A stretch of 24,908 nt of DNA from a virus (lineage: Duplodnaviria > Heunggongvirae > Uroviricota > Caudoviricetes), in the IMG/VR virus record IMGVR_UViG_2579778993_000003; one strand, written 5' to 3'. This document shows positions 2,531 to 20,003 of this stretch, in pieces. Position 1 is the first letter of the stretch. The number at the start of each line of letters is the position of its first letter. The notes under the pieces were generated by a model, which ran no database searches, was not told the origin of the DNA, and saw nothing but the letters and a program-made list of their open reading frames with translations. The position numbers and the translations under genes are program-made.

Positions 2531-4387
2531 TTATGATGATGCTGGTGCATTTATCTCCAGCACCAGACTTTCTATCTCAACGCCATACGCTGCATTTTTG
2601 GTAATATCCGTCAGCGTCAGCGCATTCAGCCCCAGTGTCAGACTGTCTTTTATGACCTGGAATGCCGGGCCAGCCACTCCATTCAGTTTCGGAGTAACCG
2701 TGGCACTGCCGGCGGTGAACACCAGCTCCAGCGTCTGCCAGTCGTTACTGTAATTCCCGAACTCGCCCAACTTTGTGTTTCCTGCTTTCCTGTGATGCAT
2801 CAGATTCAGTTTGCCGTCTGTGGTCTGGGTGAAGAACGACATCAGGAACGGGTTACCAGTCCCGGTCATCGCCACGACGTCAGGTAACGCTACATCGGTA
2901 TACAGATAAATTCCCAGACCGAACTGGTTGTTGGTCAGTGCGCCTGACAGTCGAAACTTACAGCTCAGTCTGCCACCCCGTGTCAGCAGGGAGACTGCGT
3001 CATCCACCGGATGCATCAGGGACCAGGTTTTATTGCTCTGCTTGGTAACCTTAAACACACCATCTTCCAGCGCAACACTGCCGCCGGTGATGGTCCAGCC
3101 CTGCGCAGCAGCCTCTCCGGCTGTCGGCAGCAGGGAGACTGTACGAACGGATGTGTCACCATCAGACGGCCCCGATGGCGTGTCGCCGCCGGGCGAGGGT
3201 TTAATCTCCGGTGCGGTACCGCTGATGAAGGCGCTGGTTCGACCAACTGCGTTCAGAATAGCGGTTGCCAGGCGATCCGAAATAATGCCCCTGCGCGCCC
3301 ATGAACTGAAATGTGTCGGACGATTTGACGATACCCAATTACCATTACTACGGGATTGCGCGCCGTAATAACCTGCATCAGCAATATCCGGGTCTTCTGC
3401 CGGTAAGTTGGTGGGCGTGTTGTTGCCGTTACCGTCGGTCATGAACGGCACAAAGAAAACGTTGTCGCTCTCCCTGTTTTTGTACGCGCCGTAGACGGAG
3501 TCATACTGTGTGCCGTATGTGTTTTTCCAGTAATACGTCGTGTCGCCACAAATCCACGGTACAACTGCAGCACTGCCGCCATGGCACTGCGCCGCCAGCC
3601 CGGCAAGGTCAGCACGGAACTGCTGTACCATTGCAAGAAATGCTGCTGGCTGCTGGGCGTAACTGGCATTCGTCATATCGAATTCCCCCTGCATCCAGCA
3701 TATCGCCAGCAAAACGTTTTTCGGGTTTTTCTGCAATGCTGCCTTCGTGCGGAAAAGCAGATCCTGATATAATGGTTTACCCACACCCCAGCGTGCCGAA
3801 TCCTGGCTGGCCCCCGTGTCCGCACTGAATGTCCCCTCCGCGCCCTGGGTGAATGCCGAACCACCACGACAGCATGGTACCAGCAGGATCCCCGCATTAT
3901 TAGGGATATACGGAAGCAGTTTTTTGGCAATATGTAAGCCCTGTCCGACACAGCCGTACTGCCCTTTGCTCAGGTCAGCCCGGGGATGGTTAATCGTACT
4001 CATATCCTGAACATCATGCAGACAATGGTCAGCAGGAATGATGTCGTTAAATACGCATACTTCACCACCGGGAGTCACTGTGTTACGACGGGCCAGTTGC
4101 TTAATGCGCGGATGGGGCGCATCGTATGAATCCGGAAGCGGAAGCCCTTCACCGTAAGCCATGGCATTGGACTGCCCGGCCAGTACGATGACGTAGTACC
4201 ACTCCGGCTCAGTTGCACCACTGACGACCACATCACCTTCTGCTGCAATCGCCTGCATCAGGGTATAAGGGGTTATGGCCACCGGACTACCAAACGGCTG
4301 CCAGCCCTCTTTCAGTTTATGTGTCAGCTTTTCCGCAAGATCTGACGGCGACGCCGCCCTGACAACATCATAGTGTTTAAATGCCAT
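2531..4387 (-). CDS. Prophage sialate O-acetylesterase-like protein (NanS-p-like; SGNH/SASA hydrolase with extra N- and C-terminal domains), 618 aa
   Basis: Contains the esterase motif LAGQSNAMAYGEG (GQSN catalytic serine block) after an N-terminal ~60-aa domain (MAFKHYDVVRAASPSDLAEKL...), plus a long C-terminal beta-rich region. It sits between the tRNA/stx slot and the holin, the position of NanS-p genes in Stx-type prophages. Confidence 0.7.
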   Translation of the reverse strand: MAFKHYDVVRAASPSDLAEKLTHKLKEGWQPFGSPVAITPYTLMQAIAAEGDVVVSGATEPEWYYVIVLAGQSNAMAYGEGLPLPDSYDAPHPRIKQLARRNTVTPGGEVCVFNDIIPADHCLHDVQDMSTINHPRADLSKGQYGCVGQGLHIAKKLLPYIPNNAGILLVPCCRGGSAFTQGAEGTFSADTGASQDSARWGVGKPLYQDLLFRTKAALQKNPKNVLLAICWMQGEFDMTNASYAQQPAAFLAMVQQFRADLAGLAAQCHGGSAAVVPWICGDTTYYWKNTYGTQYDSVYGAYKNRESDNVFFVPFMTDGNGNNTPTNLPAEDPDIADAGYYGAQSRSNGNWVSSNRPTHFSSWARRGIISDRLATAILNAVGRTSAFISGTAPEIKPSPGGDTPSGPSDGDTSVRTVSLLPTAGEAAAQGWTITGGSVALEDGVFKVTKQSNKTWSLMHPVDDAVSLLTRGGRLSCKFRLSGALTNNQFGLGIYLYTDVALPDVVAMTGTGNPFLMSFFTQTTDGKLNLMHHRKAGNTKLGEFGNYSNDWQTLELVFTAGSATVTPKLNGVAGPAFQVIKDSLTLGLNALTLTDITKNAAYGVEIESLVLEINAPASS

Positions 4388-4609: not shown

Positions 4610-4616
4610 GCCCACA

Positions 4617-4850
4617 AGAAAACCCCTCCGGAGAGGGGCTAAAGCCGCGTATCTGTATCATCATGCACATGGTGCCGGGTGCCTCCCGGTGAGTTCAGCC
4701 CGGTGCCACTAAACCCGCGTCATTCTCGTTTTGATAATCAGAGATTATACCGTCACCAGTCGCCCCTCCGCTCAGGGGGATTCACCATGCGAAATTTTTT
4801 TAACAAATGCCCAGTCTGACAGGCAACTGTCAACTTACTGAATTGTGAGC
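4617..4850. repeat. Direct repeat unit A (~230 bp), degenerate copy of unit B, rich in palindromic hairpins
   Basis: Shares ordered conserved blocks with 5105-5318: aaaa(c/g)ccctccggagaggggct, gcatggtgccgggtgcctcccggtga, cccctccgc.cagggggattcaccatgc, ttttaacaaa and cagtcaac...ctgaattgtgag. The first block is a perfect 6-bp hairpin (CCCCTC cgga GAGGGG, 4623-4638) preceded by an A-run, so it is a minus-strand terminator. Confidence 0.6.
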
Positions 4851-4903: not shown

Positions 4904-5104
4904 CGGATGGGCCTGGAAGGATAGCGGTCATGTGATGCCGGTTTCCCGGTAACTCAGCACCGGTATCTGAGTCAACGTTTTCTCTACTGGGTCATTTCCG
5001 ATACGCCCTGCCTGCTGACAGGCTTTCATCACATCTGAAAATATAGCACCCTGACTGATACTGTAGTACCTAAGGTTCCAGAAACTGTGATGTATCCGGC
5101 ACAG

Positions 5105-5318
5105 AAAAGCCCCTCCGGAGAGGGGCTGGAGAGTGGCGCTATGTGCCATTGCATGGTGCCGGGTGCCTCCCGGTGAATTCAGTACCAGCACCTGAATCCG
5201 CGATTATCCCATATACCTACTCGCTGATTGCCCCTCCGCACAGGGGGATTCACCATGCCAGTTTCTTTTAACAAACTCCCCGCAAACCAGACAACAGTCA
5301 ACCGCCTGAATTGTGAGA
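5105..5318. repeat. Direct repeat unit B (~215 bp), degenerate copy of unit A
   Basis: Same conserved blocks as unit A, including the CCCCTC cgga GAGGGG hairpin (5110-5125) and the 8-bp inverted pair gcatggtg / caccatgc bracketing a variable ~110-nt core. Confidence 0.6.
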
Positions 5319-5362: not shown

Positions 5363-5439
5363 TGGCGCGTTGTACTGGATTCGAACCAGTGACCGATTGC
5401 TTAGAAGGCAATTGCTCTGTCCGGCTGAGCTAACAACGC
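5363..5439 (-). tRNA. tRNA-Arg (anticodon UCU)
   Basis: Manual cloverleaf on the minus strand: acceptor GCGTTGT/ACAACGC, D-stem GCTC/GAGC, anticodon stem ATTGC/GCAAT with loop CTTCTAA, T-arm ACTGG-TTCGAAT-CCAGT, discriminator G and encoded CCA. All stems perfect; 77 nt. Confidence 0.9.
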
Positions 5440-5452
5440 AGGATACAGATAA

Positions 5453-5529
5453 TGGACCGCCTTCGGGGACCCGAACTCCGCGCAACCAGCTTCGAAGGCT
5501 GGCGCTCTTTCCTGATGAGCTAATGGCGG
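5453..5529 (-). tRNA. Putative tRNA-Arg (anticodon UCG), slightly degenerate
   Basis: Cloverleaf fits with D-stem GCTC/GAGC, anticodon stem CCAGC/GCTGG with loop CTTCGAA, and encoded CCA. There is one mismatch in the acceptor stem (A-A), one in the T-stem (A-C), and an atypical T-loop TTCGGGT, so it may be a diverged or pseudo tRNA. Confidence 0.55.
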
Positions 5530-5536
5530 TATGTGA

Positions 5537-5612
5537 TGGTGGCCCTTGCTGGATTTGAACCAGCGACCTGGCGATTATGAGTCGCTCGCTCTCACCACTG
5601 AGCTAAAGGGCC
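5537..5612 (-). tRNA. tRNA with CAU anticodon (Met by anticodon; resembles the Ile2/lysidine-type ileX/ileZ class)
   Basis: Minus-strand sequence GGCCCTTTAGCTCAGTGGTGAGAGCGAGCGACTCATAATCGCCAGGTCGCTGGTTCAAATCCAGCAAGGGCCACCA folds as a 76-nt cloverleaf with one A-C mismatch in the anticodon stem. It closely resembles E. coli ileX as I recall it. Confidence 0.85.
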
Positions 5613-7203: not shown

Positions 7204-7252
7204 GTGTAAAAAATCTTCTAACGTCAGGCATAAAACGCCTATCGTTAGAGCA

Positions 7253-8484: not shown

Positions 8485-9543
8485 TTATGCTTTCCACTTC
8501 AGAACACCCGAATTTCTCGCGTGCATTAAAAAACGAATCAGCAACAACAGCTGGCTGCCGTGTTTTTCTTCAAAATCTTTTACCCCGGCGTGTAGTTCGC
8601 TATGGCATTTACGGCACAGCGGAATAACAAACAAATCATCAGCCTTTGTTCCCATCCCTCCCAGTCCATGACCAATGATGTGATGCGGATCATCTGCCTG
8701 ATTGCCACACGTCATGCATTTCTGCGTTTTTACCCAGCGCGTGTATACAGGCATCTCTTCCCGTTGTGATTTCTGGCGCTGGAGATACTGAGCCGGTGAC
8801 TCGGGATCAACGGCAATGCTGACCACCGTCTTTTCCTGTGGTGGGTTCTGTTGCTGGTGGGCGTGAGGCAGCGGCGCAAGATTTTTTGTGCGCTGTTTCA
8901 GTATGCTGGTGGCGGTCTGCTCTCCCGGTATGATGTCGCTTTCACTGTACACAGAGCGAATTTTTTCCGCACGCAACCCCAGCGAACGACGTAATACCGC
9001 TTCCGGTAGCGCGTCCGCCACCTGATTGCGGACCGCCCACCAGGATAATTCAGCCAGAGATAATTCACGCTCCTGCGTACCGCTTATTGCGTGACCGATG
9101 ACGTCAATCATCCATGCTGACAGGTTTTGATGAGCAAGTTGCCCGAGTGATTCGGATGTCTGGTCACGCAGCTGGTTGTCGCAGTGCCAGCACAACACCA
9201 TTGCGCCGGTACCATAACGGTGAATGACGGTTTCGCTGTGATGATAATCGCCGTGTGGCCACTGGCAGGATTTAATATGGCGCAACAGCCAGTCAGACAA
9301 TGCACCAGCACCACCAGCAGCACGAATCACCCGTGCGTTACTGAAAAACGGCAGCAATGTTTTGTCTTCCACCAGCGGCTGGCGAGCGGCAGGAACGACC
9401 CCGGACGGCAGATTACGCATGCTTTTTGGTTCCGGCTCCACCAGTATTCTGCCGTTATGGAATGCTGACATTGATTCACGGCCTGGCTTAACGATAACCA
9501 GACCGAGTTCCGGTACCAGAACAGATCGAAGTAATACCCGCAC
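8485..9543 (-). CDS. DUF968-type prophage protein with C-terminal HNH-like zinc-finger nuclease motif (YdfU-like)
   Basis: The C-terminus CMTCGNQADDPHHIIGHGLGGMGTKADDLFVIPLCRKCHSELH has the Cys/His spacing of HNH endonucleases. The start is ambiguous: GTG at 9541-9543 has a strong SD (GGAGG), and an alternative ATG lies at 9469-9471. Confidence 0.65.
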   Translation of the reverse strand: MRVLLRSVLVPELGLVIVKPGRESMSAFHNGRILVEPEPKSMRNLPSGVVPAARQPLVEDKTLLPFFSNARVIRAAGGAGALSDWLLRHIKSCQWPHGDYHHSETVIHRYGTGAMVLCWHCDNQLRDQTSESLGQLAHQNLSAWMIDVIGHAISGTQERELSLAELSWWAVRNQVADALPEAVLRRSLGLRAEKIRSVYSESDIIPGEQTATSILKQRTKNLAPLPHAHQQQNPPQEKTVVSIAVDPESPAQYLQRQKSQREEMPVYTRWVKTQKCMTCGNQADDPHHIIGHGLGGMGTKADDLFVIPLCRKCHSELHAGVKDFEEKHGSQLLLLIRFLMHARNSGVLKWKA

Positions 9544-16787: not shown

Positions 16788-17213
16788 TTAGTGCATCACC
16801 ACAGCATTCCCTGCCGGGCCGCCGCGATTCATCTGGTCATACAAAACAACCGCTGACGCAACAAAATCATCGACATCCTTCACCAGCCGATCCCTCCGTT
16901 CGACGATCTCACGGTAATATTCAGAACTGTGGCTGCGCATACGGGCCACCAGCAAAGGCGGCATCGCCTTTTCGATCGCCGGTAACAGAGCCTGCATTTT
17001 TTCAACAGCATCAGGGGTGTCTTTATCCAGCCAACGGAAAATTTTCTGGGTATTACGGGCCAGGGCTTCCGGATGGCTGTCGTCATACAGTTCCGGGAAC
17101 GTCATTCCCAGCTCGAAATACGCTTTGGTAATTTTCGCAGCCGGCACTTTTTCGCCGTCCGGATGCGCCCAGACATTCATCGCCATGCGGATGTGTTCAT
17201 GCTTGATTTTCAT
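16788..17213 (-). CDS. YdaT-like prophage protein (DUF1441-type), 141 aa
   Basis: N-terminus MKIKHEHI... matches my recollection of Rac YdaT. ATG at 17211-17213 with an AGGAG SD; sits downstream of a Cro-like gene as in the Rac ydaS-ydaT pair. Confidence 0.6.
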   Translation of the reverse strand: MKIKHEHIRMAMNVWAHPDGEKVPAAKITKAYFELGMTFPELYDDSHPEALARNTQKIFRWLDKDTPDAVEKMQALLPAIEKAMPPLLVARMRSHSSEYYREIVERRDRLVKDVDDFVASAVVLYDQMNRGGPAGNAVVMH

Positions 17214-17478
17214 GAATCAAGCTCCTAGAAAGTGGTTGTGTTAACGTTTTGGTATCTTCCAGCTCGGGCCAAATATTCATCCAATCAAAAGGCCTTAGTT
17301 GCTGACGTGTAACTTCACCATTACTGGCTCGCTCAATAAGGACACATAACGATGCCCCTAACACTTGACCTTTACTCAATGCCTTTCTTAGATAACCGAT
17401 GCTGGTACCACACTCGCATGCAAACATACGCTGTTCATCTGACGAAAGAGAATTGAGAAATATTCTTAATTCTTCCAT
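17197..17478 (-). CDS. Cro/YdaS-like HTH regulator, 93 aa
   Basis: ATG at 17476-17478 with an AAGGAG SD 5 nt upstream. HTH-like segment ECGTSIGYLRKALSKGQ. Divergent from the repressor gene across a 100-bp operator-containing region. Confidence 0.65.
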   Translation of the reverse strand: MEELRIFLNSLSSDEQRMFACECGTSIGYLRKALSKGQVLGASLCVLIERASNGEVTRQQLRPFDWMNIWPELEDTKTLTQPLSRSLIHENQA

Positions 17479-17505
17479 AGCTACTCCTTAGTAAACACAG
17501 CAAAG

Positions 17506-17543
17506 AATACCCACAGGTAAACAAAAGTCAATACCCACAGGTT
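17506..17543. promoter_or_regulatory. Two direct copies of a 13-bp operator-like site (AATACCCACAGGT) in the divergent repressor/cro promoter region
   Basis: Copies at 17506-17518 and 17531-17543, centres 25 bp apart. A candidate leaderless repressor promoter (-10 TATTAT 17567-17572, -35-like TTTACC 17545-17550) places the transcription start at or next to the repressor ATG (17579). Confidence 0.5.
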
Positions 17544-17578
17544 GTTTACCTTGCGGTAATCGCATCTATTATTTACCT

Positions 17579-17998
17579 ATGGACAAATATGAATTTAGAC
17601 GACAGCAACTCATCAAAATTCGTGATGAGAAATGCGATGGTAAAGCGGTTAACGTGGCCAGAAAGATCGGGCGCGAGCCTTCTTATGTATCAAGAATGTT
17701 GTACCCAGAGGGGAAAAAGGGAAAAAAACGGATCGCTGATGATATGGTGGAGATTATCGAAGAGTCCTTTGGGTTACCCCGGGGATGGATGGATGGTATC
17801 GTTTCATCATCAACGAACACAGCCTCCAGTTATGAAACAAGGGTTCTAACGCCACGACAACGTATTTTTTTAGATCTCTTAGACGAACTGCCAGAAAGTG
17901 AAGCGGATAAATTATTAAAAACTCTTGAAGAGAAAAAACAGTATTACAATATGATCTACGAAGAAATCCGTAAAAAGAAAGCACAAAACGCATCATAG
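17579..17998 (+). CDS. Prophage repressor (RacR-like HTH protein), 139 aa
   Basis: HTH-like segment AVNVARKIGREPSYVSRML. No SD upstream of the ATG, consistent with a leaderless mRNA. Flanked on both sides by related palindromic sites. Confidence 0.65.
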   Translation: MDKYEFRRQQLIKIRDEKCDGKAVNVARKIGREPSYVSRMLYPEGKKGKKRIADDMVEIIEESFGLPRGWMDGIVSSSTNTASSYETRVLTPRQRIFLDLLDELPESEADKLLKTLEEKKQYYNMIYEEIRKKKAQNAS

Positions 17999-18040: not shown

Positions 18041-18077
18041 TACCCATGGGTATTTACTTTTTAAATACCTATGGGTA
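18041..18077. promoter_or_regulatory. Second operator cluster: perfect palindrome TACCCATGGGTA plus near-palindrome ATACCTATGGGTAT
   Basis: Sites at 18041-18052 and 18064-18077 share the half-site TACCCA with the sites at 17506-17543. They lie between the repressor gene and the next plus-strand operon. Confidence 0.5.
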
Positions 18078-18263
18078 TCCTTCTTTTCATACCAACCCAC
18101 CCCGCCCCACAGAATGCAGGGCAATACTTCGAGTTACCAGGCAGTGGTCAGGGGTTAAGTAGCCAGCCCGAGGCGTAAGAACATGACGGCAGGGTTCAAC
18201 TTTAATAACTATGCAGCAGGTTTTTGTTCCGCTACCCCGGCGTTAAGGGGAAATGAGGTCAAC

Positions 18264-18416
18264 ATGGATATGCTCAATCTTGGCAACAACGAATCTCTGG
18301 TATGTGGCGTGTTCCCCAACCAGGACGGCACGTTTACCGCGATGACGTATACCAGAAGCAAAACGTTTAAAACTGAAGCTGGCGCGCGTCGCTGGTTAAC
18401 CAGAAACACTGACTGA
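18264..18416 (+). CDS. Small prophage protein (50 aa), YdaF/DUF1391-like
   Basis: ATG at 18264 preceded by GAGG with a 5-nt spacer. Product MDMLNLGNNESLVCGVFPNQDGTFTAMTYTRSKTFKTEAGARRWLTRNTD. Family assignment is from memory of Rac small proteins and is uncertain. Confidence 0.45.
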   Translation: MDMLNLGNNESLVCGVFPNQDGTFTAMTYTRSKTFKTEAGARRWLTRNTD

Positions 18417-18427
18417 TGAGGTTGACG

Positions 18428-18829
18428 ATGGAATTTAAAGATTTACCAGTACCATTCCAGGAAATGGCATCGAATGTGGTTCGCTCTCAACTGGCGACTC
18501 TTGACCTGAGTACCGTAGAAAAAGAAACCATCGATACTATATCCGGTAACGTGCGTCGTGCCTTTATAGGTCTGTATGAAGAGAAGCGCCTATTCGGCGG
18601 ACAGAATTCGCCTGAAAACAAGAATCAAGCAAATGATGAGAAGCTGAAACACATTATCGCCTTACTTTTGGAAGACGCAAAACGTCTACAGCAACTGGAA
18701 CCAAATGCAGGCACAGAGGCCCGCATTTGGATTGCCATGAAATCACTCAAATGTGAAAGCAGTGATTATTTCAAAACAACAATTAAAACTACTCAACTTT
18801 CGGGAGAGCTACTGAAGAAATTGCCATAA
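18428..18829 (+). CDS. Hypothetical protein (about 133 aa)
   Basis: ATG at 18428 preceded by GAGG; the track ORF starts at 18416, overlapping the previous stop. No motif recognised. Confidence 0.45.
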   Translation: MEFKDLPVPFQEMASNVVRSQLATLDLSTVEKETIDTISGNVRRAFIGLYEEKRLFGGQNSPENKNQANDEKLKHIIALLLEDAKRLQQLEPNAGTEARIWIAMKSLKCESSDYFKTTIKTTQLSGELLKKLP

Positions 18830-19067
18830 GAGCATGGTCTTTCTCTTGTTCTGCAAGATGAGCATTAATACCTGGTATGGTTTTTTCAAATTTATCTATC
18901 TGTTGAATAACAACTTCGCGGTATACGTTTGTTTTTGTACCACCAAGCGCAGCCGTTAATGCAGAAAGCATATTTAGTATCATATCAGTGCGATATGAAA
19001 GAATCCTGATAGCTTCATCTTGTTTTTCAATAATAGATTGCAGGGCCTCAATTTGCTTTTTATCCAT
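18789..19067 (-). CDS. Hypothetical helical/coiled-coil-like protein (about 92 aa)
   Basis: ATG at 19065-19067 preceded by GAGGGTGA. Its 3' end overlaps the convergent 18428-18829 gene by about 40 bp, so one of the two may be spurious. Confidence 0.4.
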   Translation of the reverse strand: MDKKQIEALQSIIEKQDEAIRILSYRTDMILNMLSALTAALGGTKTNVYREVVIQQIDKFEKTIPGINAHLAEQEKDHALMAISSVALPKVE

Positions 19068-19099
19068 TTCACCCTCCTGAGGGTTGGTAATTAAGGAGT

Positions 19100-19460
19100 T
19101 CTCCACGGGTCAGGTGGAGTGCGTGCGCCGGACACGGGTGAACATCCGGCACTGACAGTTTACTGAAAGGATATGTCCCTGAAAAGTCAGGGCATAACGC
19201 GAAAGCGCACGGCGAAATTGGTCTCTCTGTACGGTGTCGTTAAATTTAGTTCGACCGTGCGCTTCCGGTTGTGGCAATCCGCGAAATGGTGCGGCGGTAA
19301 GTATGGCGGGGGTATTCCTTCCCCCGTTGAGGACACCGGGTTGTCAGGTTGACCATACGCTTAAGTGACAACCCCGCTGCAACGCCCTCTGTTATCAATT
19401 TTCTGGTGACGTTTGGCGGTATCAGTTTTACTCCGTGACTGCTCTGCCGCCCTTTTTAAA
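19100..19460. other. GC-rich, hairpin-dense non-coding region (candidate structured RNA or DNA site)
   Basis: No convincing ORF. Several perfect stems: GCCGGA/TCCGGC nested inside GTCAG/CTGAC (19111-19156), CCCTGA aaag TCAGGG (~19177-19194), GCGCACGG...CCGTGCGC enclosing ~45 nt (~19205-19262), CGGGGG tattcctt CCCCCG (~19307-19326), and GGGTTGTCA-19 nt-TGACAACCC (~19338-19374). Confidence 0.3.
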
Positions 19461-19626
19461 GTGAATTTTGTGATGTGGTGAATGCGGCTGAGCGCACGCG
19501 GAACAGTTAAAACCAAAAACAGTGTTATGGGTGGATTCTCTGTATCCGGCGTTAATTGTTAACTGGTTAACGTCACCTGGAGGCACCAGGCACCGCATCA
19601 CAAAATTCATTGTTGAGGACGCGATA

Positions 19627-19815
19627 ATGGAAACGTTATTACCAAACGTTAATACGTCTGAAGGTTGTTTTGAAATTGGTGTCACTATCAGTAACCCAGT
19701 ATTTACTGAAGATGCCATTAACAAGAGAAAACACGAACGGGAGCTATTAAATAAAATATGCATTCTTTCAATGCTGGCCCGTTTACGTCCGATACAAAAA
19801 GGATGCTGGCAATGA
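19627..19815 (+). CDS. Hypothetical small protein (62 aa)
   Basis: ATG at 19627 preceded by GAGGA with a 7-nt spacer. Product METLLPNVNTSEGCFEIGVTISNPVFTEDAINKRKHERELLNKICILSMLARLRPIQKGCWQ. It occupies the position of small kil-type genes in Rac-like prophages. Confidence 0.35.
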   Translation: METLLPNVNTSEGCFEIGVTISNPVFTEDAINKRKHERELLNKICILSMLARLRPIQKGCWQ

Positions 19816-20003
19816 ATACAGCATTTGCACTTGTTCTGACAGTTTTTCTTGTTTCCGGAGAGCCAGTTGATATTGCAGTCAGTGTTCACAGGACAATGCA
19901 GGAGTGTGTGACTGCAGCAACCGAACAGAAAATTCCCGGTAACTGTTACCCGGTCGATAAAGTTATTCACCAGGATAATAACGAAATCCCGGCAGGTCTT
20001 TAA
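19812..20003 (+). CDS. Hypothetical small secreted protein (63 aa) with N-terminal signal-peptide-like segment
   Basis: ATG at 19812 preceded by AAGGA. Product MNTAFALVLTVFLVSGEPVDIAVSVHRTMQECVTAATEQKIPGNCYPVDKVIHQDNNEIPAGL has a hydrophobic N-terminus and two Cys in the mature part, with no lipobox. Confidence 0.4.
   Translation: MNTAFALVLTVFLVSGEPVDIAVSVHRTMQECVTAATEQKIPGNCYPVDKVIHQDNNEIPAGL

Follow-up and report, generated by a model that had tools for sequence, protein, structure and literature searches.

What is the hairpin-dense stretch of DNA that lies between the immunity and recombination regions of the Caudoviricetes record IMGVR_UViG_2579778993_000003? The window analysed here is the whole of this DNA, 24,908 nucleotides (nt) long; coordinates are positions within it, and the block in question, 19100-19460, is read on the plus (+) strand. 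A sequence-only reading had left the block anonymous and offered three kinds of candidate: a structured regulatory or antisense RNA; the leader of the adjacent minus-strand gene; and a protein-recognition DNA site. Taken together, the comparisons favour the first. The block is very probably (about 0.85) the untranslated precursor region of DicF, a small regulatory RNA (sRNA), in a Qin/dicBF-type early-left (PL-like) prophage operon, encoded on the + strand. The most conserved part of this precursor is a 116-nt domain, for which we propose a fold of four helices and a pseudoknot.

Identity of the block

The 3′ end of the block holds DicF itself. An Rfam scan, which the sequence-only reading had suggested, returns DicF (RF00039) at 19401-19452 (+) with 76.7 bits against a gathering score of 48 (E 1.4e-15), covering the model from end to end (1-52 of 52), and this sequence is identical to DicF of Escherichia coli K-12. 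Similarity extends beyond the sRNA: 19082-19460 is 92-95% identical to the untranslated region between ydfC and dicB in K-12 Qin, and in BLAST comparisons 19082-19700 is 95% identical to Qin ydfC-dicF-dicB, with homology starting at 19082. The K-12 genome record leaves the ydfC-dicB interval without annotation; in phage Tritos, the equivalent 53 nt are annotated as DicF. Folding of 19384-19460 yields the terminator stem followed by UUUUU (z = -3.9 for the terminator). The gene context agrees: dicB lies downstream, a DUF1391 gene is found upstream, and 17197-17998 holds a Cro/CI-type pair. Every criterion that could be tested places the locus in the DicF/dicBF family. It is known and very common; BLAST matches to 19000-19700 were obtained with 4644 of the 5426 complete E. 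coli genomes.

The arrangement is shared with K-12 Qin: dicB and a DUF1482 (ydfD-like) gene follow; a DUF1391 (ydfA-like) gene precedes; and the locus sits between the immunity region and an exonuclease. The window differs from Qin in three respects: the upstream gene is not ydfC but a + strand open reading frame (ORF) of 137 amino acids (aa), overlapped by a minus-strand ORF of 92 aa; the apical sequence of the probable RNase III hairpin is different; and hairpin B of the domain is one base pair longer. The earlier candidate of a structured regulatory RNA was right in kind, as the block carries a base-pairing (antisense-type) sRNA and its structured precursor, both on the + strand. What had been missed was DicF with its terminator in the last 60 nt, and dicB beyond them. 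In annotations, the label for the block should be dicF precursor plus DicF sRNA in place of an unknown element. On derepression of the prophage, DicF and DicB act as inhibitors of cell division and change metabolism and sensitivity to phages; they belong to the ordinary and well-understood cargo of prophages.

The hairpins that drew attention to the block are real. GC content is 0.55 at 19100-19399 and 0.38-0.45 in the flanks, which bears out the description of the block as GC-rich. Both the 9-bp perfect stem with a 19-nt loop (GGGTTGTCA/TGACAACCC, hairpin C in Table 1) and the stem GCCGGA/TCCGGC (19127-32/19145-50) are present as described. Further stems are formed by CTCCAC/GTGGAG (19101-06/19114-19), CCCTGA/TCAGGG (19177-82/19187-92, weaker in K-12) and CGGGGG/CCCCCG (19307-12/19321-26), and a 13-nt pair at 19200-12/19255-67 is 92% complementary. 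The GTCAG/CTGAC helix (19109-13/19152-56) exists in this sequence but lacks conservation, most homologues having GTGAG or GTAAG. Folding of both strands of 19082-19460, as had been proposed, gives a modest excess over shuffled sequences (z = -2.1 for the + strand and -4.2 for the minus strand). Folding energy by itself proves little; the observation is real but thermodynamically unremarkable, and the case for structure in the block is made by conservation and covariation, not by folding energy.

The block also lacks a convincing ORF, as claimed. It contains short, overlapping ORFs of at most 59 aa, the longest at 19173-19352; these are disrupted by 1-nt indels among homologues, and no coding sequence (CDS) is annotated over the block in a 99.9% identical genome or in K-12. 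The view that no reverse transcriptase is adjacent likewise holds, the neighbours being DUF1391, hypothetical proteins, dicB, DUF1482 and exonuclease genes; a retron msr/msd was rejected on this ground.

How the precursor is processed can be anticipated from K-12, where DicF acts with Hfq to repress ftsZ and other mRNAs and blocks cell division. There, DicF is embedded in an untranslated region of considerable length (Faubladier 1990, via PMC10448788; PMC5069750). The polycistronic dicBp transcript is first cleaved by RNase III, which leaves a 190-nt DicF species with an RNase III-dependent 5′ end; the 53-nt DicF is next produced by RNase E; an internal promoter plays no part; terminated ydfABC-dicF and read-through ydfABC-dicFB-ydfD transcripts occur; and the 190-nt form stably accumulates in stationary phase (PMC10448788). 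The processing and repression functions of DicF in this prophage are presumed from the identity of its sequence with that of K-12.

Applied to the window, the sequence of events would likely involve: synthesis of a polycistronic + strand RNA through the block from a repressor-controlled upstream promoter; cutting of the hairpin at 19196-19267 by RNase III, which would leave a species of ~190 nt beginning a few nt from the 116-nt domain (19268-19383); cutting by RNase E in the AU-rich linker at 19400/19401, within a loop whose local hairpin would mask the seed, freeing the 53-nt DicF; and termination of DicF by its own intrinsic terminator, with some transcripts reading through into dicB. Counted back from the DicF 3′ end (19452-19457), 190 nt reaches 19263-19268, the 3′ arm at the base of the hairpin. 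This makes the hairpin the obvious candidate for the RNase III substrate, and it probably generates the 5′ end of long DicF. The local hairpin is visible in the fold of 19384-19460, where the DicF 5′ seed at 19404-11 has a possible pairing partner in 19390-97.

The last of these cuts resembles the maturation of other sRNAs processed by RNase E (ArcZ, RprA and sRNAs derived from 3′ untranslated regions; PMC9438474), in which a seed and terminator are freed from a precursor by an AU-rich single-stranded cut. The DicF precursor differs from the ArcZ/RprA type in that it lies within an operon, is first trimmed by RNase III, and carries a large, conserved 5′ domain with tertiary structure. We know of no equivalent of this domain in ArcZ, RprA or the sRNAs derived from 3′ untranslated regions.

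Proposed fold and covariation of the 116-nt domain

The proposed fold of the domain is a four-way junction in which a closing helix bounds hairpins A, B and C, and a linker strand pairs with the loop of hairpin C to form the pseudoknot (Table 1). A minimum free energy fold of the single sequence independently yields the same four nested helices. RNAalifold, which is unable to draw pseudoknots, preferred the pseudoknot helix over hairpin C.

Covariation, a check put forward by the sequence-only reading, supports the structure of 19268-19383 through compensatory changes. In a covariance-model alignment of 85 distinct sequences, the same sequences from which the structure was derived, 95.8% of cells are paired, and 10 pairs (37 cells) have changed on both sides. 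None of 500 shuffles attains the observed values. When the partners are slid, pairing falls to 34-53% and the covariation score from 0.094 to at most 0.059. An alignment made with MAFFT gives similar figures. In the pseudoknot helix, 100% of cells are paired and three pairs vary (GU 69/GC 16; UG 84/CG 1; UA 80/CG 3/UG 2). Even between the close relatives phage P1 and phage P7 it carries a double change, GCATGG/CCATGC as against GTATGG/CCATAC. Hairpin B has been swapped for at least eight unrelated sequences, each of them able to form a hairpin; examples are CGGGG/CCCCG, CTGGG/CCCAG, CAGGTG/CACCTG, CAGGGG/CTCCTG and GGGT/ACCC. Hairpin C has changed from UA to CG and from UA to UG, and the closing helix from UG through UA to CG and from GU through GC to UA. 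The junction and loop nucleotides are invariant.

Many of the conserved pairs are G·U, with counts of UG 56 and GU 63 at positions of the closing helix and GU 69 and UG 84 in the pseudoknot. On the minus strand these would be A·C, and the functional molecule is therefore the + strand RNA. This bears directly on two other explanations of the block. The first is that it is a promoter, 5′ leader or antisense regulator serving the 92-aa gene on the minus strand at 18789-19068, the ATG of which (19068) directly adjoins the block together with its AGGAGG; the lower folding z of the minus strand also fits this idea. The strand of the wobble pairs speaks against it, as do three further findings: the block is equally present behind the + strand ydfC of K-12, with homology from 14 nt off the minus-strand ATG; no sigma-70-like promoter was found on the minus strand in 19069-19200; and DicF and dicB are both on the + strand. 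The leader role proposed by the sequence-only reading is consequently very improbable.

According to the second, a decayed ORF, or else a site that works at the DNA level in protein binding or recombination, would account for the block. Short ORFs do exist in it, including the one of 59 aa, and mosaic breakpoints cluster in its 5′ part. Against this, homologues are related by 1-nt indels and by hairpin-for-hairpin swaps of variable length, compensatory and wobble changes are strand-specific, and RNA species from the region are known experimentally in K-12. We regard this explanation, too, as highly unlikely. For its two parts that had been raised earlier, nothing was found in favour of a protein-recognition DNA site, which the + strand-specific wobble pairs contradict, and a relic of an ORF still coding in relatives is excluded, since no CDS is annotated in any close relative and indels break the ORFs.

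The domain occurs once in the window. It falls outside the known riboswitches and other classes among the 4227 models of Rfam 15: over 19190-19400, at E<=10, these returned only a chance-level match to c4-a1b1 (9.3 bits), and a scan of 18700-19900 returned only DicF and, downstream, a sub-threshold STnc100. Rfam scans of related loci likewise added nothing to DicF and STnc100.

Table 1. Positions of the features discussed in the text; ORF, open reading frame; aa, amino acids.
Feature	Position	Strand	Remarks
Cro/YdaS-like gene and DicA-like repressor gene	17197-17998
Putative PL-like (dicBp-equivalent) promoter	18054-18082	+	TTTACT-17-TATCCT, read from sequence
137-aa ORF	18416-18829	+
92-aa ORF, WP_000358771.1 (PGAP hypothetical protein)	18789-19068	-	AGGAGG ribosome-binding site
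5′ spacer	19082-19195	+	hairpins 19101-19119, 19127-19150, 19174-19195
Long imperfect hairpin	19196-19267	+	core CGAAAGCGCACGGCGA/TCGACCGTGCGCTTCCG; inverted repeat and fold
Conserved domain	19268-19383	+	116 nt; proposed four-way junction and pseudoknot; most conserved part of the block
Closing helix P1	19268-75/19376-83	+
Hairpin A	19279-83/19290-94	+
Hairpin B	19307-12/19321-26	+
Hairpin C	19338-46/19366-74	+
Pseudoknot	19296-98 and 19301-06 with 19353-58 and 19359-61	+	partner in loop of hairpin C
Linker GCCCUCUGUUAUCAAUU	19384-19400	+	AU-rich 3′ part; RNase E site presumed from K-12 identity
DicF sRNA	19401-19457	+	RNA 19401-19452; terminator hairpin 19415-19451; U tract 19453-57
DicF-dicB untranslated spacer	19458-19626	+	~98% identical to K-12
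dicB, 62-aa cell-division inhibitor	19627-19815	+	annotated dicB in near-identical genomes

Distribution and possible roles of the domain

The domain is found at 9436 places in 4415 complete E. coli genomes, 480 of them on plasmids; the DicF segment is found at 7244 places, 11 on plasmids, a comparison that is only indicative as the two queries differ in length. Copies without the DicF seed occur in cdtI, Ayreon, 2H10, Stx2c-converting phages and Salmonella phage F1055, and in phages P1 and P7 and hundreds of P1-like plasmids. Rfam DicF has no match in the phage P1, cdtI and Stx2c loci. In cdtI, the domain lies ~280 nt downstream of a strong PL-like promoter just after cI, and is directly followed by a DicF-like terminator. 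The 3′ flanks fall into 17 classes, of which 16 show a hairpin and T-run 45-92 nt beyond the domain; the linker ("seed") and loop sequences are widely different. One Salmonella copy runs straight into the Shine-Dalgarno sequence and ATG of a CDS, with no terminator.

Analysis of these flanks indicates that the recurrent unit across phages is: the folded domain; a variable single-stranded seed; and a terminator hairpin. Its 5′ end would be set by a nearby promoter in phages P1 and P7, or by a long processing hairpin in lambdoid prophages. A unit with its 5′ end at the domain matches the 190-nt long DicF that has been seen experimentally. DicF-like cassettes with replaced seeds and loops, for example CCCATGCGTAGTCTTTGGTGGCATCAG and CCCATGTTGATTACCTTTTGGCGGGTATTCG, were observed at a series of loci (L059/L067, L116/L205, L095, L111, L122, L144, L175 and L195). 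Seeds exchanged behind one domain suggest an sRNA family whose target specificity may have diversified. The domain is more tightly constrained than the DicF seed.

The copy in phages P1 and P7 lies in the leader of the ban operon and is recorded in GenBank AF234173 as a "dicF-like region" (feature 68472-68573). The two phage copies share with the window the four-helix, pseudoknotted domain (85-88 bits with the covariance model; 75-82% core identity, with compensatory changes), an intrinsic terminator after it, and an early, repressor-controlled transcript. They differ in that the DicF seed is absent and the closing helix has another sequence; in that the 5′ end would come from the predicted C1-controlled Pban start ~25 nt upstream, not from a processing hairpin; and in that tRNA genes and tciABC-ban follow the terminator, not dicB.

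The reading to which we commit, without regarding it as proven, is that the domain forms the folded 5′ body of a pro-sRNA. In this role it would give the precursor a defined, nuclease-resistant 5′ end, would stop the downstream seed region from mispairing, and would present the linker to RNase E, setting the amount of active 53-nt DicF.

Several observations weigh against this reading or limit it. The scaffold or stability role is itself a guess. The folding energy of the domain taken alone is unexceptional (z = -1.2). The aligned sequences all come from phages of Enterobacteriaceae, and much of their pairing is simple conservation. Among copies sought prospectively as pseudoknot variants mutated in GUAUGG, most matches to the pattern are chance; three are real, one paired as G·U and two uncompensated singletons. 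The domain persists in phage P1, and the Salmonella copy precedes a CDS without a terminator; both point to a function that is not tied to DicF release. The position of the RNase III cut is given by the 190-nt length only. Transcription of the block in this prophage is carried over from its identity with K-12, and, with a minus-strand ORF in the place of ydfC, transcription through 18789-19068 is assumed.

A less probable alternative is that the domain is an undescribed class of structured phage RNA with a function of its own, common to lambdoid prophages and P1-family phage-plasmids, with DicF and at least a dozen seed-plus-terminator variants as its interchangeable 3′ appendages. That function might be regulation of termination in cis, or that of a protein-binding or decoy RNA in trans.

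Taken separately, control in cis is doubtful. Here, the domain would act on transcription of the following terminator, either as an attenuator that senses a ligand or factor or as a processive antiterminator of the put/EAR type, and would set how much of the early transcription continues beyond the DicF terminator, into dicB and the genes of recombination. Consistent with this proposal, the domain is in every case located within an early operon under repressor control, downstream of PL-like promoters or of C1-controlled Pban; a terminator follows closely in all but one of the flank classes, and the genes beyond need read-through, which is seen in K-12 transcripts; a Pfam search of the neighbouring ORFs detected no N-like antiterminator; and the four-way junction, pseudoknot and invariant nucleotides have the complexity of a riboswitch or EAR. 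Other features do not fit. The linkers and terminators behind the domain are unrelated and lie at varying distances, the 3′ strand of the closing helix has no conserved alternative pairing with the terminators across classes, one Salmonella copy has no terminator at all, and no Rfam riboswitch, EAR or other family matches.

The resemblance to put is one of position. HK022 put and Bacillus EAR both lie just inside early phage operons, upstream of terminators, and the domain is of EAR-like size and complexity. HK022 put is of ~70 nt and has two stem-loops arranged as a V, just downstream of PL/PR (PMC9378689), whereas the domain has 116 nt, four helices and a pseudoknot; identity with put RNA was rejected on this difference in architecture. 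HK022 22-30 kb, a sparsely annotated stretch that may not contain put, gave only chance matches in BLAST with the block, with the spacer between dicF and dicB, and with either STnc100 copy of the window.

Action in trans is less probable still. In this case the domain would be a structured, cloverleaf-like RNA that binds a protein or acts as a decoy in early infection, and DicF-type seeds would have been appended to it secondarily. The wider distribution of the domain than of the DicF seed would be explained, particularly on plasmids, as would its presence beside tRNA genes in phages P1 and P7, where the seed is absent; the tertiary pairing between loop and linker recalls the contacts of tRNA D-loops and T-loops, and the 190-nt form is stable in K-12 stationary phase. 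The proposal derives purely from distribution and shape, however, and the closing helix is not followed by a conserved CCA-like 3′ tail. ARAGORN and the Rfam tRNA model do not recognise the domain and are blank throughout the block, in keeping with the earlier statement that it is not a tRNA; the tRNAs of the window are confined to 5363-5612.

If the domain controls maturation or read-through, this would account for the level of DicF and DicB output, for the existence of a stable 190-nt long DicF, and for the ability of one scaffold to carry many different sRNA seeds across phages. Searches of the available literature for the domain (dicF-like, pseudoknot, covariation) found no published description. 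Three points are not contained in the searchable sources: that long DicF has, as its 5′ extension, a conserved four-helix domain with a pseudoknot; that the "dicF-like region" of phage P1 is this domain rather than DicF; and that many different seed and terminator cassettes stand behind it. The domain is a worthwhile lead rather than a demonstrated new system.

Upstream parts, operon context and neighbouring elements

The 5′ spacer is common to Qin-type prophages and is wholly replaced in other classes, the homology of which begins only at ~19177-19200; among the loci compared, no compensatory changes were seen in the hairpins of 19082-19195. This anatomy was compared across ~90 loci fetched via DicB and ~120 fetched via a DNA pattern. 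In the long hairpin, the apical 35 nt are wholly different between the window and K-12 and the stem is retained; at the same position before the domain, relatives in Salmonella and of cdtI type carry a long hairpin whose sequence is unrelated. Mosaic breakpoints are concentrated in this 5′ part of the block.

Some loci depart from the common anatomy. Two IMG/VR contigs (L019, at 1962-2554, and L043) carry an insertion of ~590 nt in the spacer, between the equivalents of window positions ~19152 and 19182; it contains a minus-strand ORF of up to 191 aa and looks like a moron in the dicF untranslated region. Others (L051, L011/L041/L086 and L144) are deletion variants that lack the long hairpin of RNase III type together with the 5′ strand of the closing helix; the remainder of the domain, and DicF, are retained.

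The transcript that carries the block presumably starts at the promoter-like site at 18054-18082. Its position, just downstream of the repressor gene, is that of K-12 dicBp, and two near-identical 12-bp palindromes, TACCCATGGGTA and TACCTATGGGTA, lie around it within 18041-18077. From the sequence, the palindromes are likely OL-type operators and the promoter the dicBp equivalent. The site scored below threshold in a promoter scan. A terminator scan called the same palindromes a 16-bp "terminator" stem.

Between this site and the block, the minus-strand 92-aa ORF covers the final 41 nt of the 137-aa + strand ORF and is antisense within the early operon. It has no Pfam match and no recognisable promoter; if transcribed, it would collide with dicBF transcription. 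Downstream of dicB follow the DUF1482 gene and a gene for an 823-aa exonuclease. A search of genome contigs with DicB found only seven loci, all in Escherichia/Shigella plus one mis-binned metagenome-assembled genome, and so brought no gain in phylogenetic depth. The latter (L008), a DicB/dicF locus with 85-94% identity to E. coli, is assigned to a "Veillonella parvula" assembly and is almost certainly a binning contaminant.

Finally, STnc100-like elements recur near the domain and elsewhere in the window. The sub-threshold match next to DicF spans 19450-19659 (+), with 38.7 bits against a gathering score of 47 in cmscan. Phage P1 (L091) has a similar sub-threshold match of 33.4 bits at 2842-2961 (+), just upstream of tciA in the Pban operon. 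With an STnc100-like match before the first ORF in both phage types, the order is therefore the same: domain, STnc100-like element, first ORF. The window also has two full-length STnc100 (RF02076) copies in tandem, at 4610-4819 (-) and 5097-5287 (-), with 161 and 136 bits. The covariance model of the domain gives a weak match of 13.7 bits at 4661-4795, inside one of these copies. The pair lies just downstream, on the minus strand, of the tRNA-Met/Arg/Arg cluster at 5363-5612 (-), in an arrangement typical of the late region of Stx-type lambdoid phages.

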